In this document: positions 1-56,992 of the stretch, one piece after another
Numbering within the stretch: the stretch's first letter is position 1
How the letters are laid out: each line of letters opens with the position of its first letter
Assembly: GCA_030593065.1 (NCBI GenBank)
Contig: JAUVHV010000002.1
Location: 33,003 to 97,002, forward strand
From: Candidatus Omnitrophota bacterium
Lineage (GTDB): Bacteria; Omnitrophota; Gorgyraeia; JABMRG01
Direction of reading: 5' to 3'
Length of the DNA stretch: 64,000 nt
Translations under genes and position numbers: made by a program
The notes under the pieces: generated by a model
The model's input: the letters and a program-made list of their open reading frames with translations, nothing else
The model's database searches: none
What the model was told of the DNA's origin: nothing

Positions 1-3000
1 GGCGGTGCGATTGCGAATTAGAGGCAGGGGAATCTGGATAATAATCCCCAATTCCTCAATATGCCTGCGTAAAGAAGCAGGAATAAGCTCTAAATATTCT
101 TCTTTAAGCGAACATACCCTTAAACCTGCTTTATCAACTATCTGTAATGGCATATCCCTGGCGCTGATTATTTTAAAGTTACCAAAGTTAGTCGATTTAT
201 TCTCAGTAGGTTTTGTGGCGATAAAATCGGATTGGGCCAATAGTTCTTTCTCTATAAGCAAAGGCTGTTTATTGCCTTCATAATCAAGAAGGTAAATAGT
301 AAAGTTCTCATTTTGGGCAAGGCCAGCAAAGGTCTTCCAACTCCTTTGGGCAAGCATAGCGTCAAGTTCGGGGATAGTATTATCAATCGTCTTAATCCGC
401 CGCACTGTTACGCCTTGTTTTACGCTTTCATCATTAACTTTGCGTATGCCGGTGAGTTTAATCGCCTTTGGCTTGCCTGATGTGTCTTTGATTACAGTAA
501 AACTAAAGATGTAAGCGCGGTCTCGGTTTTTAGTAATAAACTCCAGTCTATCTACCCCCTCAAATATGGTATATTTACCGGTACCAAAAAACCCGGCTAA
601 CTCTATCTGTTCCCCCTTTGCCTTAGTCGATTTAGGAATAAGCAGGGCTACTTCCTTAAGCGCGCCTGTGCCATCATCAGCAGCCTCTTCTACATACTCT
701 TCCTCTCCATACTCATTTTTCTGAAGGTAGAAATCAATTACCAGCTCTGAACTTTCCGCATCGCTTGAGTTCTGGGTAATCTCGCGAGCATAACCACCGG
801 ACTCAGCTTGCACGGTTATATTTTTCAATAACTCGGCCTCTAAGCTATTAGAACGCTTGGGGGGACTATGGATATGCTCAAGAAGATAATCTATATCCAT
901 AACTATATCCTCTTCACCGGCTTTGGGACGCCTCTGCTCTAATTTAATTATCTGAGAAAGTTCAATTCCCCCTTTAGCAAGGGCAAAATCTCTACCAATG
1001 AAAACAAGGCGCCTTTTTTCTTTTATCTGCTCTACCTCATTAGCAAGAAAGATTATAAATGCCCGCGCTTCACCCAGATTATGGGGTTTATCCGGGTGTT
1101 CAATATAGGAAAGAATATCATCGAAATCAAGAACCTTAAATGTCTGGTGCAATCTTTCCAGGAACTTTCTCTTTACCCCATCTTTTGCATCAAGAATTTT
1201 AGAGAGCTGATTTTTTACAACTTGGATATTTTTACCATCGTCCAAGCTTGCGGCACAGGAAAGAAATTGAACAATATCAGTAATCTCAGAGAGTTTAATC
1301 TGATTATAGGTTGCTCCTTTCAGATCCTGGATAAAACGGGCAATAAGAGGAATGGCATCAACCTTTTCCTGAGCATCTATATCCCACCCATGACCTAATA
1401 CCTCAAAAACATTGCTATCAATAACGTCAAATCTTAATTCAGGATTGCTGCTCAGCCAAAATAGTTGGCTAAATAAAATATTATAAAAGTCCTTTTGGAC
1501 TGTATATTCTTCCTGGGTGAGCAGACCTGCTACAGAATTGAGATATTCAGGAAGAACCTTCAGGATCTCGTGCATTCTTTCGCTAAGCATATCAAAGGGC
1601 AAAGGTATGCCTAAATCCAAAGTCTCACCACTTAAAGCGTCTTTATATCTTTTTACAATCTCTTTCTCCTGGTCTTCATACAGTTTAGTAATAAATTGTT
1701 TAATTATGCGTTCAATGTCCCCCTCATATTCTTCAGGAATTAGCTCAAGAAACGGTTCATAAGCAATTTTTGCCTGAGCGATGAATTCATCTCTTCTGGG
1801 CAAAATATTATTTTGCCACAATTTAATTGCCTTTTTTTCATCTTTAGTTTCAATTTCGAAATCCTGCTTAGTTTCGGGCATACCCGAAATCCCTCTCCAT
1901 TCATCATGATAGCTTTGTGCCACAGCTTGAGCAATAGCGGCTAAGGTTTCTGCTTTATGATCTGACGAAGGAATGTTATTTACTACTATAGTGAGGGCTT
2001 GGGTAACCAACTCCTGAGCCTGGGTGATGTTACCGCTTTGTGCCGCAGCCTGAGCAATAGCAGCTAAGGCTTTTGTTTTATGATAAAAGTCAAAAATATC
2101 ATTTTCTGTTATTGTGAGAGCTTGGGTGACCAACTCCTGGGCTTGGGTGATGTTACCGCTTTGTGCTGCAGCCTGAGCAATAGCAGCTAAGGCTTTTGTT
2201 TTATGATAATAAGAGTTAGAAATATCATTTTCTGCTATTGTGAGGGCTTGGGTGACCAACTCCTGAGCTTGGGTGATGTTGCCGCTTTGTGCTAGAGCTT
2301 GAGCAATAGCAGCTAAGGTTTTTGTTTTATAAGGGAGGTCAAGAATATCATTTCTTGCTATGGTGAGGGCTTGGGTAAATAACTTCTGGGCTTGGGTGAT
2401 GTTGCCGCTTTGTGCTGCAGCCTGAGCAATAGCAGCTAAGGTTTCTGCTTTATAAAAGGAACTGGTAATTTCATTTCTTACTATTGTAAGAGCTTGAGTA
2501 ATATCGCCGCTTTGTGCTAGAGCTTGAGCAATAGCAGTTAAGACTTCTGTTTTATAGGAGAAGTCAAGAATATCATTCCTTGCTATGGTAAGAGCTTGGG
2601 CAAATAACTTCTGGGCTTGGGTGATGTTGCCGCTTTGTGCTGCAGCCTGAGCAATAGCAGCTAAGGTTTTTGCTTTATAATAATAAGAGTCAGAAATATC
2701 ATTTTCTGCTATTGTGAGGGCTTGGGTGACCAACTCCTGAGATTGGGTAATATCGCCGCTTTGTGCTAGAGCTTGAGCAATAGCAGCTAAGGCTTCTGCT
2801 TTATAAAAAGGATCACTAATCTCATTCGCGGCAAGTAAAAGTCCGTTAAATATTTCTTCCTGCCTTGTATCAATGGGGCCTTGCGCAGAGACAAAAATCG
2901 GCTCTTCGGGCCTGGCGGGGTCGAGATAGATTACATCCCCGGTTTTGGGGTTGAGAAAGACAAAGTATTTGCCGTCAAAAGAGACAGAGCTATATTCATA

Positions 3001-6000
3001 AGCAACTTTCAGCTTGTCAGAAGCTATGCTACCTTCAAGCCACCAGGTATTCTCTAAAATTACGGATTGATGAGGAAAACAAGCAGTAACCGCACCATTA
3101 AAACAACCTGTTTGATCACCGTCGAGATTGTATTCATAAATTTTCCCTTCAAAGTAAGATATCAACTTGCTCCTCGTGGGTTTATAATTCACAACCTCAC
3201 CTTTAAAAGGAATTTTCTTGCCGGGTTCCATACCAATCGCCACTGGATTATCCGGATCAGAGTTGTCGATGAAAAGATCAAAATGAGGGTGCTTGTATGC
3301 GCCTTTTTGATTTAGTCTCTGGAGCGGATCTACTGAAATGACTCTGTGAAACCATTCACCATCCCTGGCTGCCTTGTATGTCCCATTAATAAAACCCTCT
3401 CTATAATCAAAAGGCCCAAAACTCTTATCATAGATATCACCTTCTTCGGTAAAAAATAATGTTCTATTATTTTCAAATATTACCCAATAAACTGCTTTAC
3501 CGTTTTTCCAGCCTGTGCCTATACTTTGTATCTCCTCCCCTCCAAAATCGGGTAGATAAAGCAGATTCTTTATCTTATGAATATAGATAAATGTATCTCC
3601 AGATGTTGTGCCAACTGCTACTGTATATGTTCCGGTAGAATCAGTATGCAGGTACTTAAGCAGGTACTTAAGTTCGTCTCCAGCACCAACGCACTTTCCT
3701 GTTTCCAAATCAATCAAACTCATCAACGCAGAATCTTTATCCCGCACAAAGGCCACATTAGCAAAAGGATTGATAGCGTATTCCACATTGCCTTTGCCCA
3801 GATTAATACGGCCGATTATTTCTCCACCCTTATCAGGGAAAAACTCTGCAATAAAGGCACCTTTGGAAATTTTTAATTTTGTTTTCGCGGAAGCTACTGC
3901 TTCTACTGGGATTATCTTTATAATCACAAGCTCTTTTTGGCCTGTTTCTTTGTCTTCCAAATAGGTCAAGTACTTGCCATCTTTGCTGAATTGGAGATCA
4001 GAATAAGGGTTTTGTAATGGCTTAACCGTAGGCTGCATAGAAAAACCTGACCCCAAATAATATTTTTGCCCATTCTCTACATCAAAGACTTCTCCATTCA
4101 TTGTGCCGTCTCTCCTTTGCACATAGGCAAAGCGTTTGCCAGATGGAATAATTATATCGCCTTCATCTTTAGAAACATGGAATACTGGTGGAAAAAAGAT
4201 ATCCTTACCTAATTTTTGGATATTACATGAACTCTTTGTTGTAACTTTATAGTATCCTTTTCCTAACAGTTCTATCTGCTCTATAGCTCTATGCCTACTG
4301 GCTATATTTGTCTCCAGGTCAAGCAGGTCTCCATTCTCTAACAATACAGTTTTTTGGTTAGCATCAAGAGGAGGTTTATTAGTTTTTGCGATTGGTGCTT
4401 CAACAGAAACAGGGGGCCTGGCAAGAAACTTATTAATTGCCTCTGAATCAATCTCGCCTTGGCTTTTTATAAGGTCAGCCTGAGAAGCTAATCTCAGGTT
4501 TTCTTTGGGTTTGGTAATCTCATAAGAGGTAACCACCTGTTCAGCGGTAATTATATTGACTATCTGTAAGAGCAAGGCCAATTCTCTCTCTTCATCACCT
4601 GTTAATCCTTTCACTCTTTTAGCTGTTAATTCACTAAGCCTCTTGCTGCCTGATAAGTTACTGGCAATGGCAATAAACCTGTCTGTCCTGATGATGGGCA
4701 ACCGGCCTTCCTGCTGCCAGGTATGCCACTGGCGATGGTATCTTAAGACACCTTTTAGGCTCTCTTCAGTAAATGGAACGAGAACCAGCGGTAAGTGTTT
4801 ATCCCCATCCAAGCTGATACCAGAGACTACAACTCCTCCGATCTCCTTAAGGCTCAATACCCCCTGCCAATCAAACAAGTTCTTATTCACAAACAGAACT
4901 TCTTTGCCTTGCGGAATGGTCAATTTTTTAAATAGTTTATCGTGGGGTAAAATAACAAAGTTCTCTTCTCTTAAGGCACTTATAATTTCCGCTAAAAGTT
5001 TCTGAGTATTCGCACAGATAGCCTTGATAGTGTGAGCATAGTTTTCATTGCCCTGGATTAATTCCTCAAGCCCCACTACAATGGTATTGATATATCTGAT
5101 TTTGTCAACATTGGAGAGGGTGGAATGACTGATGATTTCAATAATAGCTTTCTCTACTGCCAACTGAAAATTGGATTTTTCTCCCGACTTAAGTTCAAGT
5201 GGAATGATGATATTGTCCCGGGATTCAGGCACATCTAAAAGAGAGCCAAACTCAATCATCAGCCCGCCCTCAGTAGTAGCCTCTTTAGCAATATCCTGTG
5301 GAATGTCAACAGCCACAATCACCTCGCTGTTTCTGGAGAAAGAGACTCTATGGGGGAGTGTAGTATCCTGCACCACCTTAATCTTGCTAAGTTCTTTCTG
5401 AGCTGCTTCACCACTTAAAGGCTCTGGATGCTTGGTTCCCTGTTTAGGAACAAACATCCGGGAAAGAACCCCTGCTGCCATACCTCTACCATTATCTATT
5501 ATTTTTACTGTGTGCCCGCGTAATTGAATCTGAATATTACCCGCTCTTTTTTCCGGTGTATAAACCGAGTCTTTAGGAGGAACTATAACCTCTTTCTCTC
5601 CAAAACCATTCACTTTTTGGGGTTCTTTATTCTCTACTTGAGTGGTTATTTCTACAGCAGTAACATAAGGGAAACGCTTGTGAATAGCTTCTGCAATGCC
5701 TTCCTGGGAATTACGGCGTTGCCTACCAAGTTCCTCACCTGTTAATGGTAGCTTATTCTTAGTAGCTATCTTCACCACTGTTCCCTGCTCTACTGTCTGG
5801 CCACAGGCCTTTTGAAATACCTGAAGAGAAATCTTTCTAATCTGGATATAATTCTGCCCTTGTGTATCTTTGAGTATAATAAGCTGATAAGGCAGTCCTT
5901 GCTTTTCCTTTGTAAAAACATCTATCCTGTCTGCGCCCGTAGGCTCTAACCAATCAATGATTTGCTTGACACCTTTGCCAAATTGACCAATCTCAAGTCC

Positions 6001-8139
6001 AAGCGCATCAAGGCCGTTAGAAATAGCTTCTAATATTCCCTGGGCACGGGGATTTTTGTTTTGTCCAATAATCTCAATCCTTAGCCTGGGGTCCTGATAA
6101 GTTGAGTTATTAATAAGGTTGATAATCTCCCTGGTATAACCTTTTTCAGTAAGGCTCTCATAGATCCTCTGATAAGCAGCATCTCTGAAAAGCCCCTGTT
6201 TAACACCCAAAACAGAAAGAATTCTTTGCAGTACTTCCGATGGTAAATTCTGCTCCGCCAGTTTATTCTGCGCCCAGACAAAATGTTCAAGGCTAACTCC
6301 AAAAAAGTTTTGCTTAGAGTCCGAATATTCAAATGCCTGTTGGCTTTTCTTGACTATTTTGGCGTCTTGCGGCTTAAATGGTAACCAGGTCGATTCTAAA
6401 GAATCGCCCTCTTTGGCCCTCTCCTTGCCCGCAGAGGAGGCTTTTCCCTTCTCTGCCATATTCCAAATTTCTTTAAAAGCCTCTTTCGTATATTCTCTTA
6501 TTTCCCGTGGACAAAGATCGCCGTTAACAAGAGGCGCTGAGAGCATATGCTTAAAAGATTCTGTTAATTCCGCAATGTCCGGTAATATGCCTGCCATTCT
6601 GTCTGAGTACAGCTTTTCGTAATTTTCTATGCCAATGTTTGGACATATTACAACGTAGGATATATCTTTCTCTTTTAATATATTTGTTATGCCCTGGGTA
6701 TGAAAGCCGCCTGTTATGAGCATGGCTCTCTCTTTACGGCTGCGGCTCATAGCCTTTAGCGTGTTACCTACTAACGCTATGTCTCTTTTTAAAGCAAGTT
6801 GATAGTATCTTTTGGAATTATCTATCGCCTGTTGTTCTATGCAGGTTGAAGTGACAACATGGTTTAGATTCAGGCCATATTCAGCAAAAGCTGCTTTTAA
6901 AAATTGCTGAATATTTACAATGTTGGATGATTGTAAATTTTTATCTAAGTAATGCAGTTGCCTGGGGGTAAGTTCCAAGCTATATAGGCCTTGTAATATC
7001 TTTACTGACTTACTATACAATACCAGGTTTTTCTGAATGGGCGTTTTAGACAGGGCAAGCATAAGCTCCCCTTCCAGGTCTTCTGCTTCATCAAATACTT
7101 TAATATGGTTTATCTCTTTGGAGAATTTTAGGTAGTCGATGTATATGGTTAAGTGGTTATAGGTGTTTGGTGTTAAAAATTGTTCAAGATAATTATAAAA
7201 GGCTATATCCGAGAGCTTATTGAGTTTGAAGTCGAGGCTATTTTTAAGAAGCTCCTGCAGCTTCTCATTCTCTAGGTTTTCGGAGAGGTGCTTAATCAAC
7301 TCTTCTCTCTGAGCTTGGGCATCTTTAAAATCTACGCTCTTCTCTTTTTCAATAAGCCGGATGAACTCATTGAGGCTCTTATATTTCTCGATATCTACTT
7401 TTGTCTTTTTGGAGTAATATTGCAATGCTTCAAGATATTCCGGAAGTTGGAGCTGCTTTGCGTAATAAAAACCGGCTTTCTTATCTATATCTTTTAACTG
7501 TTTAGAATATACCTTTTTCTTTAAGATATTTATGCTTATTTCAACAGCTTTAAGGAATTTTAAGATTTTGTCTCTATCTAATCTATTCTCTTTGTAGGAT
7601 GCAAGGTGTTCTAAGTAGGCGGCTTTATCTTCCGTACCCTGAGCCTTGAGGGACTTATCCGTATTTGTTATCTTATAAAACTCAGCACCGGTAAAAAGGC
7701 CTTTTTCAACGAAGAGCTTAGCTGTTTTATTCTTTATCTTACCATCCGGGAATTTATTGTAGAACAAGGTATTGAGTTCTTTTGACGCACCCTCTAAACA
7801 CATAAGGTGTGTATTATGCTTTATATTAAACTCATCTATTATCTTCGCTATGTTAAGCTGGGCAACAGGGTCTATATGGCGGTCCTGGATATGTACAACC
7901 AAAAAGTCTCCTTCGCCCTTATAGGTATCTATGACCCTTCCTATCGATTCAGGTATAGTGATAGAGCCGGGATCGCTTACTATGTCAGTTCTTTTTTGCG
8001 TTAAACTATCCTCTACCAGATATCTTTTGGCATGAGGTTGTGATCCAAATAAGGTAGGATAGCAATAACCATAGGTACTGGTCAAAGCTATACTACTGCT
8101 GAGTATTATAGATAATATTCTTTTAATATTTAAACTCAT
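1..8139 (-). CDS. Giant multidomain protein. N-terminal 2713 codons lie in the window; the gene starts at ATG 8139 and runs off the window at position 1 without a stop.
   Basis: I translated the reverse complement block by block in the frame whose codons end at plus-strand coordinates divisible by 3. No stop codon occurs from 8139 down to 1. An in-frame TAG lies immediately upstream at 8140-8142. The N-terminus reads MSLNIKRILSIILSSSIALTSTYGYCYP. The ORF track omits it because it has no in-window stop. Confidence 0.8.
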   Translation of the reverse strand, partial: MSLNIKRILSIILSSSIALTSTYGYCYPTLFGSQPHAKRYLVEDSLTQKRTDIVSDPGSITIPESIGRVIDTYKGEGDFLVVHIQDRHIDPVAQLNIAKIIDEFNIKHNTHLMCLEGASKELNTLFYNKFPDGKIKNKTAKLFVEKGLFTGAEFYKITNTDKSLKAQGTEDKAAYLEHLASYKENRLDRDKILKFLKAVEISINILKKKVYSKQLKDIDKKAGFYYAKQLQLPEYLEALQYYSKKTKVDIEKYKSLNEFIRLIEKEKSVDFKDAQAQREELIKHLSENLENEKLQELLKNSLDFKLNKLSDIAFYNYLEQFLTPNTYNHLTIYIDYLKFSKEINHIKVFDEAEDLEGELMLALSKTPIQKNLVLYSKSVKILQGLYSLELTPRQLHYLDKNLQSSNIVNIQQFLKAAFAEYGLNLNHVVTSTCIEQQAIDNSKRYYQLALKRDIALVGNTLKAMSRSRKERAMLITGGFHTQGITNILKEKDISYVVICPNIGIENYEKLYSDRMAGILPDIAELTESFKHMLSAPLVNGDLCPREIREYTKEAFKEIWNMAEKGKASSAGKERAKEGDSLESTWLPFKPQDAKIVKKSQQAFEYSDSKQNFFGVSLEHFVWAQNKLAEQNLPSEVLQRILSVLGVKQGLFRDAAYQRIYESLTEKGYTREIINLINNSTYQDPRLRIEIIGQNKNPRAQGILEAISNGLDALGLEIGQFGKGVKQIIDWLEPTGADRIDVFTKEKQGLPYQLIILKDTQGQNYIQIRKISLQVFQKACGQTVEQGTVVKIATKNKLPLTGEELGRQRRNSQEGIAEAIHKRFPYVTAVEITTQVENKEPQKVNGFGEKEVIVPPKDSVYTPEKRAGNIQIQLRGHTVKIIDNGRGMAAGVLSRMFVPKQGTKHPEPLSGEAAQKELSKIKVVQDTTLPHRVSFSRNSEVIVAVDIPQDIAKEATTEGGLMIEFGSLLDVPESRDNIIIPLELKSGEKSNFQLAVEKAIIEIISHSTLSNVDKIRYINTIVVGLEELIQGNENYAHTIKAICANTQKLLAEIISALREENFVILPHDKLFKKLTIPQGKEVLFVNKNLFDWQGVLSLKEIGGVVVSGISLDGDKHLPLVLVPFTEESLKGVLRYHRQWHTWQQEGRLPIIRTDRFIAIASNLSGSKRLSELTAKRVKGLTGDEERELALLLQIVNIITAEQVVTSYEITKPKENLRLASQADLIKSQGEIDSEAINKFLARPPVSVEAPIAKTNKPPLDANQKTVLLENGDLLDLETNIASRHRAIEQIELLGKGYYKVTTKSSCNIQKLGKDIFFPPVFHVSKDEGDIIIPSGKRFAYVQRRDGTMNGEVFDVENGQKYYLGSGFSMQPTVKPLQNPYSDLQFSKDGKYLTYLEDKETGQKELVIIKIIPVEAVASAKTKLKISKGAFIAEFFPDKGGEIIGRINLGKGNVEYAINPFANVAFVRDKDSALMSLIDLETGKCVGAGDELKYLLKYLHTDSTGTYTVAVGTTSGDTFIYIHKIKNLLYLPDFGGEEIQSIGTGWKNGKAVYWVIFENNRTLFFTEEGDIYDKSFGPFDYREGFINGTYKAARDGEWFHRVISVDPLQRLNQKGAYKHPHFDLFIDNSDPDNPVAIGMEPGKKIPFKGEVVNYKPTRSKLISYFEGKIYEYNLDGDQTGCFNGAVTACFPHQSVILENTWWLEGSIASDKLKVAYEYSSVSFDGKYFVFLNPKTGDVIYLDPARPEEPIFVSAQGPIDTRQEEIFNGLLLAANEISDPFYKAEALAAIAQALAQSGDITQSQELVTQALTIAENDISDSYYYKAKTLAAIAQAAAQSGNITQAQKLFAQALTIARNDILDFSYKTEVLTAIAQALAQSGDITQALTIVRNEITSSFYKAETLAAIAQAAAQSGNITQAQKLFTQALTIARNDILDLPYKTKTLAAIAQALAQSGNITQAQELVTQALTIAENDISNSYYHKTKALAAIAQAAAQSGNITQAQELVTQALTITENDIFDFYHKTKALAAIAQAAAQSGNITQAQELVTQALTIVVNNIPSSDHKAETLAAIAQAVAQSYHDEWRGISGMPETKQDFEIETKDEKKAIKLWQNNILPRRDEFIAQAKIAYEPFLELIPEEYEGDIERIIKQFITKLYEDQEKEIVKRYKDALSGETLDLGIPLPFDMLSERMHEILKVLPEYLNSVAGLLTQEEYTVQKDFYNILFSQLFWLSSNPELRFDVIDSNVFEVLGHGWDIDAQEKVDAIPLIARFIQDLKGATYNQIKLSEITDIVQFLSCAASLDDGKNIQVVKNQLSKILDAKDGVKRKFLERLHQTFKVLDFDDILSYIEHPDKPHNLGEARAFIIFLANEVEQIKEKRRLVFIGRDFALAKGGIELSQIIKLEQRRPKAGEEDIVMDIDYLLEHIHSPPKRSNSLEAELLKNITVQAESGGYAREITQNSSDAESSELVIDFYLQKNEYGEEEYVEEAADDGTGALKEVALLIPKSTKAKGEQIELAGFFGTGKYTIFEGVDRLEFITKNRDRAYIFSFTVIKDTSGKPKAIKLTGIRKVNDESVKQGVTVRRIKTIDNTIPELDAMLAQRSWKTFAGLAQNENFTIYLLDYEGNKQPLLIEKELLAQSDFIATKPTENKSTNFGNFKIISARDMPLQIVDKAGLRVCSLKEEYLELIPASLRRHIEELGIIIQIPLPLIRNRTA
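560..790 (-). other. HSP90/sacsin/MORC-type HATPase (Bergerat fold) motif set in the C-proximal part of the giant protein
   Basis: N-box REITQNSSDA occupies 757-780. About 34 aa later, G1 box AADDGTGA occupies 661-678. About 28 aa later, G2 box GFFGTGKYTIF occupies 568-594. Order and spacing match HSP90 motifs I, II and III. Confidence 0.55.
1925..2815 (-). repeat. About 7.5 tandem copies of a 120-bp unit encoding 40-aa alpha-helical TPR-like repeats (one copy is 99 bp / 33 aa)
   Basis: The repeat is directly visible as a 120-nt periodicity: ttgtgc(c/t)gcagcctgagcaatagcagctaaggc ... gggcttgggtgatgtt. It translates to YKA(K/E)TLAAIAQA(A/L)AQSG(N/D)ITQAQ(E/K)L(V/F)TQALTIA(E/R)NDI. Confidence 0.9.
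2880..4300 (-). other. Beta-strand-rich region of the giant protein, possibly a beta-propeller
   Basis: Repeated patterns such as KDGKYLTY, GTYTVAVG and DGKYFVFLNPKTGDVIYL are reminiscent of propeller blades. This is inference only. Confidence 0.25.
5480..6050 (-). other. GHKL-superfamily-like motifs in the giant protein
   Basis: ILEAISNGLDAL is N-box-like (E-x-I-x-N-x-x-D-A). VKIIDNGRGMAAGV is G1-box-like (D-N-G-x-G-M). The spacing between them, about 180 aa, is atypical. Confidence 0.3.
6650..7920 (-). other. Region of the giant protein with TraB/GumN/Tiki-like motifs
   Basis: GDFLVVHIQDRH lies near 7890. The downstream motif MLITGGFHTQGITNILKEKDISYVV lies near 6690 and resembles the GxxH ... 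GGxHxxG pattern of the TraB/GumN family. This is a weak, motif-only call. Confidence 0.25.
8073..8118 (-). other. N-terminal hydrophobic segment of the giant protein (signal peptide or membrane anchor)
   Basis: Residues about 8-22 (ILSIILSSSIALTST) follow the positively charged stretch KR. Confidence 0.4.
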
Positions 8140-8344: not shown

Positions 8345-8453
8345 AATATTACTTGTGTCTTCTGCCTTTAGCAGCGCATTGGCTTTTTTTGCCATGAACG
8401 TAAATAGACGGCAAAAATACCTGCGCTGCTAAAGGCAAAGGCATAAGTAATAT
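8345..8453. repeat. Palindromic ~110-bp intergenic element, copy 1 of 3
   Basis: Inverted arms (c)ttatgcctttgcctttagcagcgc / gcgctgctaaaggcaaaggcataag flank a centre that holds an inner hairpin ggctttttttgcc ... ggcaaaaatacc. Near-identical copies lie at 13674-13783 and 57139-57240. Confidence 0.85.
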
Positions 8454-8461
8454 TCCTATCA

Positions 8462-9115
8462 TTAGATAAATCCATGATTAGACAGGAATTCTTTACTTAG
8501 ATTTGTATTAGCAGAATAGCCAGTTGTATTTTTATCCATAAGATTATGAGCGTATTTTGCCAGGATATCTGTCTCGATATTTAACCTGCTGCCCCTATCC
8601 TTGTCTATAAGGGTTGTGGAATGCAATGTATGAGGTATAAGCATAATTGTAAAACTATTATTAGAGACATTATTCACTGTAAGGCTTACCCCATCTACAG
8701 TAACAGAGCCTTTTTCCGCTAAAAAGCGCTCAAAACCTTTAGCAATCTCTATTTTAATCTCTACACAATCTCCTTTAAGTATTTTGGAGAGTATCTTTGC
8801 CGTATAATCTATATGGCCTGTTACGAAATGGCCCCCTAACCTGTCTTCCATTTTTAATGAGCGTTCAACATTCACTTTTTCTCCTGCTGTTAAATCGGCT
8901 AAATTGGCCCTTTTCAAAGTCTCAGGGCTGACATCAAAAGTGAGTATAGCACCATCTATCTTCGTTAATGTCAGACAGCACCCGTTTACACTTATGCTAT
9001 CGCCTTGTTTTGAATGAAGAGAGCATACCTTGCTTTCAATGACTAATTGCGCGATCTTATCTGCGCAAAATAAATTCCTAACAATTCCTACCTCTTCAAT
9101 TATCCCTGTAAACAT
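8462..9115 (-). CDS. ribE: Riboflavin synthase alpha subunit
   Basis: N-terminus MFTGIIEEVGIVRN, with the internal lumazine-binding repeat. Confidence 0.9.
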   Translation of the reverse strand: MFTGIIEEVGIVRNLFCADKIAQLVIESKVCSLHSKQGDSISVNGCCLTLTKIDGAILTFDVSPETLKRANLADLTAGEKVNVERSLKMEDRLGGHFVTGHIDYTAKILSKILKGDCVEIKIEIAKGFERFLAEKGSVTVDGVSLTVNNVSNNSFTIMLIPHTLHSTTLIDKDRGSRLNIETDILAKYAHNLMDKNTTGYSANTNLSKEFLSNHGFI

Positions 9116-10199
9116 CTGTCTCCACCAAAAGATCCTTCCCTATCCTTTTTACCTTAAGATCTGTAAGTTTTACTGCCTGGCTTATTTTTGCCACTCCATC
9201 GCCGCCTATCGAGCAGGGAGCGCCCCTTCCGCCTATTAAGATTGGCGCAATAAAGAGATAAAGTTTATCAATGAATCGTTTTTCAAGCAAAGATGCCGCA
9301 ATTTCACCGCCGCCTTCTACCAGGACACTTCCTATCCCCATTAAAAGCAGCTGCTTCATAAGCGCTTTTAAACCAACCCTGTTTGAGATAGAGCCAACAC
9401 GTATAATACGGGCTCCTTTATCTCTTAGAGCACGCTCCTTAATCCTGGAAGAACGCATTGTTGTTGCTATAATAGTCTTTCCTGGGGATAGGCTGGTAAA
9501 TACCTTAGCAGTAAGAGGGGCCTTAAGCTTTGTATCTACTATTACCTTAAAGGGTTGCCTTTTTGAATTACGAATAGTAAGTGCTGGATCATCACTTATA
9601 AGTGTATTTATACCTATCAGGATAGCATCATGTTTTTTTCTTAAATCCTGAACAAGCTTTCGCGATTCCGGGGAACTTACCCATTTAGAATCACCTTTAT
9701 TTGTAGCGATCTTTCCATCCAGGCTCTGCGCGAGTTTTAAGGTAGTTAACGGCCTTTCTCGTCTCATCCTCCTGAAAAATCCTGTATTTAACGCCTCTGC
9801 CTCTCTCTTTAAAATGCCTGTGCTTACAATTATCCCATGTTGTTTAAGGATTTTCAAACCCCTGCCCCTGTTTAATGGATTAGGATCCTTAGCCGCGCAG
9901 ACAAGCTCTTTTACGCCTGAGCGGATAACCGTATCTACACAAGGTGGGGTTTTCCCATAATAGGCGCAGGGCTCAAGAGTTACATAACAGGTTGCGCCTT
10001 CTGCTTTTTTACCCGCTTTTTTTAAGGCAACTATCTCCGCATGAGGGCCGCCAAATTGCTTGTGATATCCGGAAGCTACTATTTTTTTATTCTTTGTAAT
10101 AACACAGCCTACCAGAGGATTAGGAGTTGTCTTATCCGCGCCTCTCTTTGCTTGCTTAATAGCAAGCCTCATATATTTTTCAGCTGTTTTTAGATCCAT
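9096..10199 (-). CDS. ribD: Bifunctional diaminohydroxyphosphoribosylaminopyrimidine deaminase / 5-amino-6-(5-phosphoribosylamino)uracil reductase
   Basis: Deaminase motifs HAEIVAL and PCxxC (TLEPCAYYGKTPPC) are followed by the C-terminal reductase domain. Confidence 0.9.
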   Translation of the reverse strand: MDLKTAEKYMRLAIKQAKRGADKTTPNPLVGCVITKNKKIVASGYHKQFGGPHAEIVALKKAGKKAEGATCYVTLEPCAYYGKTPPCVDTVIRSGVKELVCAAKDPNPLNRGRGLKILKQHGIIVSTGILKREAEALNTGFFRRMRRERPLTTLKLAQSLDGKIATNKGDSKWVSSPESRKLVQDLRKKHDAILIGINTLISDDPALTIRNSKRQPFKVIVDTKLKAPLTAKVFTSLSPGKTIIATTMRSSRIKERALRDKGARIIRVGSISNRVGLKALMKQLLLMGIGSVLVEGGGEIAASLLEKRFIDKLYLFIAPILIGGRGAPCSIGGDGVAKISQAVKLTDLKVKRIGKDLLVETDVYRDN

Positions 10200-11004
10200 T
10201 TTTTAAGGCCTCGACATAAGAATAAGGAATTGAAGTCTTTCCTATTAAACTAGTGCCTTTGGCATCACCATGGCAATCAGAGCCACCTGTAATTATCAGG
10301 CTGTTCTCAATAGCAAACTTCTCATAGCGCTTTGCCGTTAAACCAACCTGTTCAGTATGAAAAACCTCTATTCCTTCTAATCCTTCTTTTACCAGCCTTG
10401 GCAATATCGAGTCGAGCCTATTGACCACAGGATGGGCTATTACCGGTACACCATTGGCCTTTCTTATAAAATCGATTACCATTTTCGAAGTATACCTAAA
10501 ATTTGATACATAGCAGGATTTTGTATCCCCTATATACTTTTTAAAAGCAACGCGCCAATTAGGAATAAGCCCTTTAGCTTCCATATACTTAGCAATATGA
10601 AGCCTGCTTATAGACACGCCACCTGTAAATTTTATAATGTCTTCAGCATCTATGTTTAAGCCATGGCCATTAAGAGCATCTACCATCTTGTAGAGCCTCT
10701 CTATCCTGTCCTGCCTTATCTTACTTAGAAACCCCAAAAAAACAGGATCCCTGTAATCTATACAGTAACCGAGTATATGCATCTCCTTACCACTCTCCTC
10801 AGCGCTTACTTCAACACCAGGTATAATCTCAACGCTATACCTATTACCCGCGCTCATAGCCTCATCAAGTCCGGATACACTGTCATGGTCTGTAATAGCA
10901 ATACAGCACAGCCCCTCTTTACTCGCAACCCGCACAGCCTCTTCGGGGCTAAAAGAGCCATCCGAATATTTTGTATGTACATGAAGGTCTGCCAGTCTTT
11001 TCAT
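10180..11004 (-). CDS. PHP-domain metal-dependent phosphoesterase (TrpH/YciV-like)
   Basis: N-terminus LHVHTKYSDGSFSPEE ... ITDHD. Confidence 0.8.
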   Translation of the reverse strand: MKRLADLHVHTKYSDGSFSPEEAVRVASKEGLCCIAITDHDSVSGLDEAMSAGNRYSVEIIPGVEVSAEESGKEMHILGYCIDYRDPVFLGFLSKIRQDRIERLYKMVDALNGHGLNIDAEDIIKFTGGVSISRLHIAKYMEAKGLIPNWRVAFKKYIGDTKSCYVSNFRYTSKMVIDFIRKANGVPVIAHPVVNRLDSILPRLVKEGLEGIEVFHTEQVGLTAKRYEKFAIENSLIITGGSDCHGDAKGTSLIGKTSIPYSYVEALKNGSKNS

Positions 11005-11430
11005 CTATTTTTTTAGCTCTTTTTTATTTATCTTATCTAAAATACCATTTACAAATTTACCTGATTCCAGATCACCATATTTTTTTGCCAGATCCACAGC
11101 CTCATTTATCGACACTTTTGCGGGTATATCATCAAGGAAGAGAAGCTCGTAACAGCTCATACGCATTATATTCCTGTCAATTACTGCCATTCTCTTAAGC
11201 TGCCAGTTTTGAGCATACAATGATATCGTAGTGTCTATTTTTTTAAGATTTTTATGAGTACCTTGTGCGAGATTTGTGGCAAACTCCTGTATAGACCTCT
11301 CCATCTCTTCAGGGTGCTGAGATAGGTTTTCCCAGAAACTACCCAGCATGGAACTTATCTCCTCATGCCTTATATCAGCTTGATATAAAAGTTGCAATGC
11401 CAATTCTCTTGCTCTTGTTCTCTTTCTCAT
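11005..11430 (-). CDS. nusB: Transcription antitermination factor NusB
   Basis: N-terminus [17 protein letters not shown]. Confidence 0.9.
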
Positions 11431-11897
11431 TTGCTAATGACGTTTAAAAGATTTGCCATCTCAATAGCTGATATAGCGGCATCCCTGCCTTTATTTCCTT
11501 CTTTTGCTCCGGCACGCTTTATAGCCTGCTCAAGGTTATCAGCAGTAATCACGCCAAAGATAGTAGGTATATTCGCGTCCAGGCCCACCCTGGCAACACC
11601 CTTGGCAACCTCTGATGCTATATAATCAAAATGTGGTGTCTCCCCGCGAATAATAGTGCCAAGACAGATTATTGCGTCATATTTTTTAGAGGCTGCCATC
11701 TTCTTAGCAACAAGCGGTACCTCAAACGCGCCAGGCACCCAGGCAACTTCTATATCCTGGTCTTTTCCGCCATGCCTTATTAATGTGTCTATGCATGCTT
11801 CCAGCAGTTTCTTTGTAATAAAATCATTAAAACGTGATATCACAATGCCAAAGTTTTTCCCCTTCGCGATTAACGCGCCTTCTAATATCTTTACCAT
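11427..11897 (-). CDS. ribH: 6,7-dimethyl-8-ribityllumazine synthase
   Basis: [11 protein letters not shown] ... GAFE(V/I)P motifs. Confidence 0.9.
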
Positions 11898-11911
11898 GCT
11901 ATTCCTCCTTG

Positions 11912-13108
11912 TTATATGTTTTCCAGGTAATGGCCAAGCTTATCCTTCTTGGCCTTTAAATATCTTTTATTCTCATTTGTCATACCAATCTCAATCGGCA
12001 CTCTCTCTATAATTCTAAGGCCATATCCTTCAAGGCCTATAACCTTCTGCGGGTTATTTGTAAGCAGCCTAATATTACTTATACCAAGATCTGCCAGTAT
12101 CTGCGCTCCTATACCGTAATCTCTTAGATCAGCTTCAAAGCCAAGGGCATGATTTGCCTCTACAGTATCAAGCCCTTCATCCTGTAATGAATAAGCTTTA
12201 ACCTTATTGACAAGCCCAATGCCCCTTCCTTCCTGACTCATATATAACAGAACTCCGCAACCCTGATCACTGATCTTTTTGAGCGCACTATGTAACTGTT
12301 GTCCGCAATCACACCTTTTTGAACCAAATATATCACCTGTAAGGCACTGAGAATGAACCCTTACCAGCACCCCGTTAATATTCCTATGTTTTATATCGCC
12401 TTTTACCATAGCAATATGGTGATAATTATCTATTTTTGATTCATAAACATGTAATGTAAAATCACCAAACTGTGTAGGTAATTTTGCCTGCGCAAGGTGC
12501 CTTATAAGCTTATCGCATTTACGCCTGTATTCTATAAGGTCCTTTATCGAGCATATCTTTAAGTTATGCTCCTTGGCATGCTCTAATAGTTCAGGCGTGC
12601 GCGCCATTGTACCATCATCATTCATTATCTCGCAAATAACACCTGCTGGAGAAACCTTCGCAAGCCTTGCAAGGTCAATAGATGCCTCGGTATGGCCTGC
12701 TCGTACCAATACACCGCCTTCTTTTGAACGCAAAGGAAATATATGGCCCGGACGCGCAAGATCTTCAGGTTTCGCGTTTGAAGCTATCAAAACCTTGACA
12801 GTTCGTGCTCTATCGTATGCGGATATACCTGTTGTTATGCCTTCTGCCGCATCTACTGAGATAGCCCATGCAGTGCCAAAAGGTGTATTTGAGCTATGTA
12901 TCATAGGATGTAAACCGAGCTTATCCATAATGTTGCCTTCAAGCGAAACGCATATAAGGCCCCGGCCATACCTTGCCATAAAATTTATATTTTCTGCAGT
13001 TGCAAACGAGGCAGCGACAACAAGGTCTCCTTCGTTCTCGCGTGATTCATCATCAATCACTATAACTATCTTGCCTTGCTTTATATCTTCTACTACTTCT
13101 GGTATTGT
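11912..13108 (-). CDS. ribBA: Bifunctional DHBP synthase / GTP cyclohydrolase II. I place the start at GTG 13108; the ORF-track ATG at 13201 lies inside the riboswitch.
   Basis: RibB N-terminal motif [23 protein letters not shown] and GTP cyclohydrolase II motifs (CxCG ... RDY). An AAGGAG Shine-Dalgarno sequence lies 7 nt upstream of GTG 13108, after the riboswitch terminator. Confidence 0.85.
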
Positions 13109-13139
13109 GTTTAAATTCACTCTATTGCTCCTTAAATAT

Positions 13140-13170
13140 AAAAATCCCGAAGGATAACCTTCGGGACATA
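13140..13170 (-). terminator. Intrinsic terminator hairpin, the expression platform of the FMN riboswitch
   Basis: On the minus strand: gtcccgaaggttatccttcgggatttttata. This is a GC stem followed by a T-run, and then the SD and GTG of ribBA. Confidence 0.6.
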
Positions 13171-13174
13171 ATAT

Positions 13175-13325
13175 CATAAAAACTGCCTTCTCTTCTCTCA
13201 TCTAGACTATACTATTGGCAAAGGAATCACACCTTTTCTGCCCTGTTAAAGGCTCGTCGGCTTTACGACCAGTAGGGAATTACGCCCTATCCCGAAGACG
13301 AGATAAGTATACCATAAACTTCAAA
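13175..13325 (-). promoter_or_regulatory. FMN riboswitch (RFN element) aptamer in the leader of ribBA-ribH-nusB
   Basis: Minus-strand sequence CTTCGGGATAGGGCGTAATTCCCTACTGGTCG ... GCCAATAGT ... AGTCTAGATGAGAGAAG matches conserved RFN blocks. B. subtilis has CTTCGGGGCAGGGTGAAATTCCCGACCGGCGG ... GCCGACAGT ... AGTCTGGATGGGAGAAG. Confidence 0.7.
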
Positions 13326-13388
13326 TCTGTCAAGCGAAAACAAAAAAGTTACCTATAATCTCTCATCCGCTGCCCTCCTCTACGCTGA

Positions 13389-13542
13389 GAGTTTTGGTGC
13401 AGCTTTTGCAGGAACGTGAAATTTTTCCCTGCGAGAAAAATTTCACTCCAAGTTGGCGCTCGCTCTCGCGTAGAACTTAATCAGGGCGAACCATGCCCGC
13501 TCGCACCACCAAGGTCCTGCGTAAGCTGCACCAAAACTCTCT
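13389..13542. repeat. 154-bp element bounded by 19-bp perfect inverted repeats, with a nested inner hairpin
   Basis: Outer arms gagagttttggtgcagctt / aagctgcaccaaaactctc. Inner hairpin gtgaaatttttc ... gaaaaatttcac. The element is intergenic, between the riboswitch and the GGDEF gene. Confidence 0.7.
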
Positions 13543-56915: not shown

Positions 56916-56992
56916 TGGTAGCGGCGAGTGGAATTGAACCACTGACAACACGGGTATGAGCCGTGTGCTCTAACCATCTGAGCTACGCCGCC
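56916..56992 (-). tRNA. tRNA with anticodon CAU (elongator Met, or Ile2 if lysidine-modified). The 3' CCA is encoded.
   Basis: I folded it manually. The acceptor stem is GGCGGCG / CGCCGCU. The D stem is GCUC / GAGC. The anticodon stem is CACGG / CCGUG with loop CUCAUAC. The T stem is AGUGG / CCACU with loop UUCAAUU. It lacks the initiator-type anticodon stem GGG/CCC. Confidence 0.85.

Follow-up and report, generated by a model that had tools for sequence, protein, structure and literature searches.

A predicted TPR solenoid of evolutionarily variable unit number in a large modular Omnitrophota protein

Introduction

The 64,000-nucleotide stretch of Candidatus Omnitrophota DNA analyzed here (the window) carries, close to its first position, a tandem array of protein-coding units that raises two related questions, namely what kind of structure these units build and by which route their number changes. 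For long Omnitrophota proteins, HEAT, NHL and TPR 'repeat scaffolding' and common, diverged nucleotide tandems have already been described in surveys (10.64898/2026.06.07.730766; 10.1101/2023.11.21.568195). Our results indicate that the array is probably a TPR-type alpha-solenoid with a scaffold or docking role in a modular protein of Omnitrophota type, and that its unit number changes by gain, loss and homogenisation of units.

Results and Discussion

Organization of the array

Tandem Repeats Finder locates the repeat at 1912-2806, with a period of 123 (4.4 copies, 85% matches) and, for the same array, a second period of 249 (3.7 copies, 80% matches, score 1125), which corresponds to a two-unit super-repeat of 249 nt generated by an A/B alternation of units. 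It is the sole sizeable tandem repeat in the 64-kb window and is encoded on the minus strand; the plus strand over the array contains no ORF of at least 60 aa. Anchoring on the AIAQA motif delimits seven full units and a partial eighth, all on the minus strand and with an unbroken reading frame throughout, which together span 1888-2805 (residues 1779-2084 of the host protein). The units are u1 (2680-2805; 126 nt, 42 aa), u2 (2557-2679; 123 nt, 41 aa), the short unit u3 (2455-2556; 102 nt, 34 aa), u4 (2332-2454; 123 nt, 41 aa), u5 (2206-2331; 126 nt, 42 aa), u6 (2083-2205; 123 nt, 41 aa), u7 (1960-2082; 123 nt, 41 aa) and the partial u8 (1888-1959; 24 aa). They are preceded by an N-terminal capping helix, QEEIFNGLLLAANEISDPF (2806-2862, minus strand, residues 1760-1778; a helix at model residues 2-13 in AF2), which looks like a degenerate B-type helix. 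An earlier, sequence-only reading of the window had thus placed the array at nearly the right coordinates (1925-2815), had counted its copies correctly (about 7.5) and had quoted its motif accurately, but its period of 120 bp (40 aa) and its 99-bp variant have to be replaced by 123-126 nt (41-42 aa) and 102 nt (34 aa), respectively.

The same reading held the copies to be more than 90% identical. This applies to only 3 of the 21 pairs formed by units 1-7, namely u1/u5 (93.7%), u2/u4 (93.5%) and u5/u6 (90.2%); overall, pairwise nucleotide identity averages 81.9% (range 72.5-93.7%) and amino-acid identity 74% (62-90%). Exact repeats within the array extend to 68 bp at most, no 71-mer occurring twice, and the assembly hazard that had been suspected is therefore a modest one; in practical terms, a k of at least 71 suffices to resolve the array. 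The possibility that the number of units in the window, or their order, stems from the collapse or expansion of repeats during assembly has to be weighed nonetheless, since the gene occurs in one assembly only (one member, one contig), with no other copy returned by exact look-up. Moreover, in the Logan assembly of SRR18936876 the adjacent rib operon is identical, but the 5-kb contig ends ~30 bp past ribE, some 300 bp short of the start codon of the giant gene. With exact repeats of at most 68 bp and no repeated 71-mer, however, the path through the array is unique for ordinary 150-bp reads or large k-mers. The frame is also intact in every unit, and both the N-cap and the C-terminal half unit are present, just as they are in the homolog P0129, whose own comparable array is identical in two JGI samples. 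An assembly artefact hence appears very unlikely.

Identity and predicted fold of the units

Several Pfam profiles match the array above their gathering cutoffs: TPR_2 (86.8 bits against a cutoff of 27, E=2.7e-25), TPR_12 (78.6 against 30.1 bits, E=4.2e-22), TPR_8 (73.3 against 25.7 bits), TPR_14 (60.1 against 23.5 bits) and TPR_1 (51.9 against 27.8 bits). Its sequence matches in the PDB include a designed TPR (5fzq) and the 42-residue, kinesin-light-chain (KLC)-like TPR of Podospora (4y6c). The AF2 single-sequence model (pLDDT 87.8, pTM 0.81) contains 17 stacked helices in A/B pairs, and the best Foldseek matches to this model, with a probability of 1.00, are the LGN/Pins TPR, consensus CTPR superhelices, BtubC, MalT and RapH. 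If G17 is set to what we take to be the canonical G15, residues A10, A22 and A29, which vary little or not at all across the aligned units (position 22 is S in u1), fall on TPR packing positions 8, 20 and 27. The array is thus predicted to be a TPR-type helical solenoid in which antiparallel helix-turn-helix units stack. The TPR-like or solenoid-like character proposed from the motif alone is supported by the Pfam, AF2 and Foldseek results, and the search with TPR profiles that had been advised returned matches above the gathering score; the repeat, for which no family had been named, can be assigned to the TPR family and, within it, to the 41-42-residue TPR_10/TPR_12 or kinesin-light-chain-like class.

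With that class (TPR_10/TPR_12, kinesin-light-chain-like; Podospora anserina NLR TPR 4y6c/4y6w, BtubC) the array shares units of 41-42 aa, the succession of helix A, turn, long helix B and loop, and small residues at the packing positions. It departs from it in the Ala/Gln-rich signature of helix A (LAAIAQAxAQSG), in mixing 41-42-aa with 34-aa units and in lacking a kinesin or NLR architecture. As in CTPR superhelices and the LGN/Pins TPR, the model is a continuous, superhelical stack of ~8 helical hairpins (Foldseek E ~1e-4), but global TM-scores of only 0.30-0.37, at 15-18% sequence identity, imply that the superhelical geometry either differs or is poorly fixed by a single-sequence model. 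The predicted solenoid would consist of the cap helix, seven units (six of 41-42 aa, u3 of 34 aa) and a half unit at its end, and may serve as a rigid scaffold or docking surface, which would bind protein partners and space them. Judging from the general behavior of TPR domains, a scaffold or binding role is the most likely one.

The host protein

The host ORF encodes 4,154 aa and matches P0001 (NCBI contig of 203,899 bp) at 100%. Six-frame translation assigns positions 1-8139 of the window (minus strand, ATG at 8139) to residues 1-2713, the ORF extending past the window start. The conserved N-terminal 'head' (6439-8139, minus strand, residues 1-567), which opens with a signal-peptide-like hydrophobic stretch, is the defining part of a family of large modular Omnitrophota proteins; its fold is that of an EreA/ChaN/TraB/TIKI-like hydrolase. 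A KASSAG junction motif (6427-6444, minus strand, residues 566-571) marks the boundary between the head and the module of residues 568-3055. There follows a first GHKL/Hsp90-like region (4432-6231, minus strand, residues 637-1236), identified by its motifs AISNGLDAL (6001-6027), GQFGKG (5971-5988) and IDNGRGM (5479-5499), all on the minus strand and presumably equivalent to Hsp90 motifs, and by a weak Pfam HATPase_c match (residues 865-898, E=0.18). Between it and the array lies a beta-rich, fast-evolving region (2863-4431, minus strand, residues 1237-1759), which has no match in the Pfam scan and is possibly propeller-like, to judge from its recurring DGKY(L/F) motifs. Downstream of the array, the module (1-1887, minus strand, residues 2085-2713 within the window) contains a second, Hsp90/sacsin-like ATPase domain with the motifs ITQNSSDAE (754-780) and GFFGTGKY (571-594), likewise on the minus strand. 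A four-homolog profile of this domain matches PDB entries of the Hsp90 N-terminal domain (E=6e-4 to 6e-3), nearly all of the 60 PDB matches listed being members of the Hsp90 family, and weak Pfam matches to HATPase_c_3 and SACS are also found. The array thus has the beta-rich region on one side and an Hsp90-like ATPase domain on the other, within a fast-evolving stretch at the center of the protein. In view of these flanking domains, the 'carboxylate clamp' TPR of Hsp90 co-chaperones was considered and discarded on inspection, as helix A lacks the K/N/N/K/R pattern that we take to be its hallmark.

When all 4,154 aa of the protein are scanned against Pfam and NCBIfam, the only domains returned are TPR, HD and methyltransferase; there is no NACHT or NB-ARC domain, nor any other NTPase domain of the STAND type. 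In its combination of HD, methyltransferase and two Hsp90-like ATPase-like regions with a TPR array, and in a nucleotide tandem that has partly decayed while the protein repeat persists, P0001 resembles the giant proteins of Omnitrophota. Surveys of these proteins ('Archaeovorins') have applied thresholds of 10 kAA and 30 kAA and report many transmembrane helices (10.1101/2023.11.21.568195; 10.64898/2026.06.07.730766). With 4,154 aa P0001 lies below both thresholds, and a crude Kyte-Doolittle hydropathy scan predicts no convincing transmembrane segment besides the N-terminal signal-like stretch.

Relatives and turnover of units

An exhaustive HMMER search with the array yields 8,205 matches and identifies two homologs, P0129 and P0128, that carry an array in the same slot, overturning the notion of a lineage-specific insertion without relatives. 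The homologs of P0001 bear the name Candidatus Omnitrophota. P0129 has ~9.5 units (spacings 42, 43, 41, 41, 34, 34, 41, 34 and 34) and P0128 ~35 units of 33/40 aa, while a third homolog, P0002, has no TPR in that slot, which accordingly holds 0, 7.5, 9.5 or ~35 units. The N-cap and the C-terminal half unit are kept in the homologous arrays, the P0129 counterpart of the capping helix QEEIFNGLLLAANEISDPF being EKEIFSESLLAANEIIGSF, and the array is an old feature of its position in the module. Other searches were less productive: a word-indexed protein search with the array and short flanks gave seven weak matches (27-31% identity) and missed the self-match, the array and its flanks produced pattern matches but no confirmed relatives among genome and metagenome contigs, and a degenerate DNA pattern for AAIAQAxAQSG[DN]ITQ found nothing in metagenome contigs; the contigs of P0129 were reached via exact protein look-up only. 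The comparison of relatives advocated in the sequence-only reading thus bears out the copy-number change predicted there, on an evolutionary time scale.

The slippage-prone change that had also been proposed fares less well, because the nucleotide sequence of P0129 is 100% identical, with 0 differences in 15,465 nt, between two separately assembled JGI metagenome samples, which argues against fast population-level slippage in P0129. This identity also bears on whether the array might be a contingency locus, in which unit number would switch often within populations and give rise to length-variant surface proteins. In-frame units of 102-126 nt sharing blocks of up to 68 bp, the signal-peptide-like N-terminus and the differing copy numbers of homologs would all suit such a locus, but the units have diverged by 6-27%, far from the near-perfect repeats of slippage-driven switching, and most unit pairs show substantial synonymous divergence, making frequent switching extremely improbable.

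Units group by gene and not by position: nucleotide identity is 0.82 among units of the window array and 0.78 among those of P0129, as compared with 0.69 (maximum 0.765) for pairs that combine the two. Within the array pS is 0.29, with its lowest value in u1/u5 (0.07) and 0.14 in u2/u4 and u5/u6, whereas pS between the window gene and its ortholog P0129 amounts to 0.43-0.64 in the flanking domains; units must therefore have been duplicated or homogenised after the two lineages split. The recent expansion or concerted evolution initially suggested is consequently upheld insofar as units are closer within than between genes and some pairs postdate the separation of the orthologs, but a mean pS of 0.29 is substantial, and most of the array is therefore not a recent expansion. 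The within-gene likeness and the young pairs fit duplication or gene conversion, and the clustering by gene would be compatible with gene conversion and with independent re-expansion alike. As to the molecular mechanism, we infer that unequal recombination, slippage during replication or gene conversion between units may underlie the gain, loss and homogenisation of whole units, a process that would leave relatives with different unit numbers and units closer within a gene than to the ortholog.

Evolution is faster in the array and the adjoining beta-rich region than in the domains that flank them. Identity to P0129 is 34-65% in the beta-rich region (pN 0.34) and 76-89% in the ATPase-like domains, and pN/pS between orthologs is ~0.6, against ~0.13-0.37 in the ATPase-like flanks. 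Such a disparity would also fit a recognition surface, and the array could be envisaged as a rapidly diversifying sensor akin to the TPR arrays of NLR/STAND proteins, shaped by shuffling and by positive selection on its concave face. Beyond the family, STAND-type proteins (NACHT/NPHP3_N/AAA_16) do account for many of the closest relatives of the repeat, the Podospora structure matched in the PDB is an NLR-type TPR, the fastest-evolving part of the module is precisely the array with the beta-rich region, and copy number differs among homologs. Against this stand the lack of any STAND NTPase domain in P0001 and a pairwise pN/pS of 0.30-0.90 (overall 0.49; seven units, one allele), which never exceeds 1 in any unit pair. 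In addition, the helix A positions A7/T, A8, Q11, A14 and Q15, which we assign to the concave face by their presumed equivalence to canonical TPR numbering, are almost invariant, and most of the variation among units falls in the loop and on positions 3-5, 13, 24-27 and 33-41. A further comparison is offered by fungal NLRs and their highly internally conserved (HiC) TPR/ANK/WD repeats, a class in which repeats share 85% or more of their amino acids over a length of 100 aa or more (PMC4986451; Dyrka et al. 2014). The array resembles these repeats in that its units are closer within the gene, vary in number between homologs and follow a concerted-evolution-like pattern, but its internal amino-acid identity falls below that criterion (PMC4986451), the best average over three successive unit pairs, whatever the offset, being 81% and thus short of 85%, and P0001 differs from fungal NLRs in having no NOD domain and no evidence of positive selection (pairwise pN/pS, seven units). 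A sensor role is, on balance, unlikely.

Cassette architecture of the host family

Under the scaffold reading, the array itself is ordinary, a TPR scaffold with gained, lost and homogenised units, and the host family is of greater interest than the repeat. In this family, head and tail are conserved and cassettes are exchanged at KxSS[AS]G junctions, the motif coinciding with module boundaries, and no description of such an architecture was found in the literature searched. A further proposal is that of a self-processing 'polyprotein' whose cassettes would be cut at KxSS[AS]G by the head or another protease, with the TPR array docking partners or substrates. If so, modules such as a 2,488-aa unit comprising Hsp90-like, beta-rich, TPR and Hsp90-like parts would be released; our literature search found neither an SSAG junction motif nor a polyprotein model described for Omnitrophota, and we regard the proposal as quite unlikely. 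With regard to the TPR scaffold, the slot marks an evolutionarily plastic part of poorly understood proteins, and the array provides a clean, quantified case of repeat turnover within large modular Omnitrophota proteins.

A smaller observation concerns the short unit. According to the unit alignment, helix B of u3 is shorter by 7 residues (21 nt) than that of the long units, and AF2 gives it 11 residues (model 121-131), against ~18 in the other units. In the long units the segment missing from u3 is flanked by a 10-nt direct repeat, TCACCCAAGC (ITQA...VTQA), which pointed to a private 21-nt deletion between the direct repeats. This microhomology does exist, yet the deletion cannot be private: the short class is also represented in P0129, by four units, and in P0128, by many, and must therefore be either ancestral or recurrent. 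Unit u3 is more similar to neighboring units of its own array (83% to u1) than to any of the short units of P0129 (69-72%), a result that is compatible with both origins.

Structure and age of the repeat array

The repeats form one array at 1912-2806, for which Tandem Repeats Finder returned periods of 123 (85% matches) and 249 (80%, score 1125) together with sub-arrays, and no comparable tandem repeat in the other 56 kb of the window. The array lies within a minus-strand open frame extending from an ATG at 8139 past position 1, and no plus-strand ORF of at least 60 aa overlaps it. Anchored on AIAQA, its units run on the minus strand from 2805 down to 1888 and measure 42, 41, 34, 41, 42, 41 and 41 aa (u1-u7), followed by a 24-aa partial eighth. 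The copy count and motif of the sequence-only reading are thus borne out; its period of 120 bp and short variant of 99 bp have to be amended to 123-126 and 102. Compared pairwise at the nucleotide level, the seven full units are 81.9% identical on average (72.5-93.7), and only u1/u5, u2/u4 and u5/u6 reach the 90% previously attributed to all copies. Because the longest exact repeat inside the array is 68 bp (there are no repeated 71-mers), and both caps and frame are intact, an assembly artefact appears unlikely.

A-type units (u1, u3, u5; AQALAQSG) alternate with B-type units (u2, u4; AQAAAQSGN...KLF...ARNDILD), which accounts for the 249-nt period, and u6 and u7 are hybrids of the two. Variation is concentrated in the loop between units and at positions 3-5, 13, 24-27, 33-34 and 36, while the helix-A core is invariant across units. 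Exactly 21 nt are missing from the short unit; in the long units this segment is bracketed by two TCACCCAAGC copies. Nei-Gojobori counts give an overall between-unit pS of 0.29 and pN of 0.14 (ratio 0.49). Judged by pS, the youngest pairs are u1/u5 (0.07), u2/u4 (0.14) and u5/u6 (0.14), and the oldest reach 0.5, so that most of the array does not stem from recent expansion, one of the two origins initially proposed.

Predicted fold

Profile searches uphold the assignment to TPR-like helical solenoids: the translated array passes the Pfam gathering thresholds of TPR_2, TPR_12, TPR_8, TPR_14, TPR_1, TPR_19 and TPR_7, and a PDB sequence search matches a designed TPR (5fzq) and a 42-residue KLC-like TPR of Podospora anserina (4y6c). 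AlphaFold2, run without an alignment, models 17 helices (pLDDT 87.8, pTM 0.81). The cap helix comes first, each of the seven full units contributes an A/B pair, and helix A of unit 8 and a short terminal helix close the series; the B helix has 11 residues in the short unit versus about 18 in the others. Foldseek retrieves from the PDB, at probability 1.00, LGN/Pins TPR domains, consensus CTPR superhelices, BtubC, MalT domain III and RapH. Since global TM-scores are low (0.30-0.37), the predicted repeat fold may be taken as secure, but not the superhelix geometry.

Modular organization of the host protein

The full host protein, P0001, comprises 4,154 aa and is encoded on an NCBI contig of 203,899 bp. 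Besides the TPR array, Pfam detects only an HD domain (3081-3204) and a methyltransferase domain (3679-3786), to which an NCBIfam scan adds nothing. BLAST against homologs resolves it into a conserved head (residues 1-577; common to about 118 of 119 large proteins, 23-82% identity), a central module with the array (576-3058; common to P0002, P0128 and P0129), an HD module (3047-3624; common to the JGI proteins P0003 and P0004 at 75-85%), a methyltransferase module (3617-3897; no sharing protein found) and a conserved tail (3890-4154; common to many family members). The homologs are annotated as Candidatus Omnitrophota, with a few Elusimicrobiota. Across the family, which includes about 115 further homologs beside P0003 and P0004, a head of about 550 aa and a tail of about 260 aa enclose freely varying enzyme cassettes, among them phosphomannomutase, kinases, PEP-utilising domains, metallophosphoesterase, radical SAM, HD and methyltransferase. 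Neither P0003 nor P0004 has the 2,470-aa TPR-bearing central module, although both match the head, HD module and tail of P0001 at 75-85% identity. Several genomes hold more than one family member (L004/L013 and L008/L011).

In P0001 the hexapeptide KxSS[AS]G occurs at 566, 3054, 3615 and 3896, which coincide exactly with the module boundaries; the first occurrence spans residues 566-571 (window 6427-6444, minus strand). The hexapeptide also marks module junctions in the homologs P0003-P0033 and P0129. The closer family members contain 92 occurrences (68 KxSSAG and 24 KxSSSG), SSAG being found 72 times in all versus about 7 expected from composition, with K at -2 in 68 of the 72. Of the internal ends of BLAST alignments between family members, 34% fall no more than 10 residues from the motif, versus 3% for random positions, and P0004 and P0001 differ by whole cassettes inserted between motifs. 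Close paralogs likewise differ by whole cassettes exactly at these sites, and more distant members lack the motif. The junctions may be sites of cleavage or of recombination, or simple linkers; neither the motif nor its placement at module boundaries is described in the Omnitrophota literature searched.

Hsp90-type motifs mark two regions of the central module, both below standard Pfam thresholds. These Hsp90/sacsin-like, GHKL ATPase-type regions (minus strand, window 5479-6027 and 571-780) lie either side of the beta-rich and TPR centre, the first bearing AISNGLDAL...GQFGKG...DNGRGM and the second ITQNSSDAE...DDGTGA...GFFGTGKY. For the second, Pfam gives weak HATPase_c_3 and SACS matches, and a four-sequence profile matches PDB Hsp90 N-terminal domains (E=6e-4 and weaker), nearly all of the 60 matches listed being Hsp90-family.

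Relatives and turnover of the array

Word-indexed protein searches did not turn up any close relative of the array, nor did array-plus-flank patterns among GTDB representatives and JGI contigs. Exhaustive HMMER over 1.84 billion representatives yielded 8,205 proteins with E<=1e-3, of which 134 also reach E<=1e-30. NACHT/NPHP3_N/AAA_16 proteins are also among the strong matches, so the repeat class is in wide use among STAND-type proteins. P0129 (5,154 aa) shares head family and central module with P0001 (62% identity over 2,673 columns). Its TPR array occupies the corresponding slot and is likewise bounded by this N-cap helix and this terminal half unit (AVAQAYH against AVAQSYH). Copy number, for which comparison across relatives had been advised, varies widely: P0129 has nine full units spaced 42, 43, 41, 41, 34, 34, 41, 34 and 34 (4/9 in the short class); in P0128 (3,564 aa) about 35 units of 33/40 aa fill the equivalent position, ahead of the shared downstream module; and in P0002 the slot contains about 484 aa of non-TPR sequence. 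In P0002, a central-module paralog from Logan (4,175 aa), a second beta-rich segment stands where P0001 has the array, and the differing N-terminal region (residues ~690-990) bears an intein-type insertion (Hint, PF14890).

Units group by gene: their nucleotide identity is 0.82 in the window array and 0.78 in P0129 but drops to 0.69 (maximum 0.765) when units of the two genes are compared, and some synonymous codons are array-specific (e.g. GGC against GGA, CTC against CTT). Since pS within the array (mean 0.29, minimum 0.07) is below the P0001/P0129 ortholog level, units were duplicated or converted after the two lineages parted. Unequal recombination, slippage or gene conversion would let the unit number drift. 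The P0129 gene is identical over 15,465/15,465 nt on contigs of two JGI samples, so that its array is stable on a short timescale and reproducibly assembled. A perfect 12-nt duplication (GCAGGTACTTAA x2.1; window 3648-3672) elsewhere in the giant gene encodes the doubled LKYL-LKYL in '...DELKYLLKYLHTD...'; given the single KIKHLHTD of P0129, it is a small in-frame duplication private to the P0001 gene.

In the best-supported reading, the TPR solenoid is a scaffold or docking surface at the plastic centre of modular P0001, a function suggested by the modelled fold. A sensor-type array is conceivable, inasmuch as the array and the adjoining beta-rich region evolve fastest: between P0001 and P0129, pS and pN are 0.44 and 0.28 in the array and 0.64 and 0.34 in the beta-rich region, versus 0.43-0.55 and 0.07-0.16 in the ATPase-like flanks, and amino-acid identity is about 51% (64 gap columns), 34-65% and 76-89%, respectively. 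Pfam and NCBIfam scans of P0001, however, show no NOD domain, and neither omega >1 nor concave-face variability is seen in comparisons among its seven full units. As a scaffold, the array is of a kind already described for long Omnitrophota proteins, in which surveys report TPR/HEAT scaffolding and partly decayed nucleotide tandems (10.64898/2026.06.07.730766; 10.1101/2023.11.21.568195).

Genomic surroundings

The rest of the window is ordinary bacterial chromosome of about 40% GC, with a rib operon, smc, fabF, ftsA and an RND efflux system. An independent assembly, the 5,006-bp Logan contig L001 of SRR18936876, contains ribBA, ribH, nusB, a PHP-domain gene, ribD and ribE (cf. window 8432-13400), including an exact match to the RibE used in the look-up; it ends about 30 bp beyond ribE and thus misses the start codon of the giant gene by some 300 bp. 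GC skew is negative in nearly all 2-kb bins of 1-64000 (cumulative -5.0) and 38 of the 41 ORFs of at least 200 aa in the whole window lie on the minus strand, consistent with a single replichore and strong gene-strand bias. The window carries one tRNA-Met (56916-56992).
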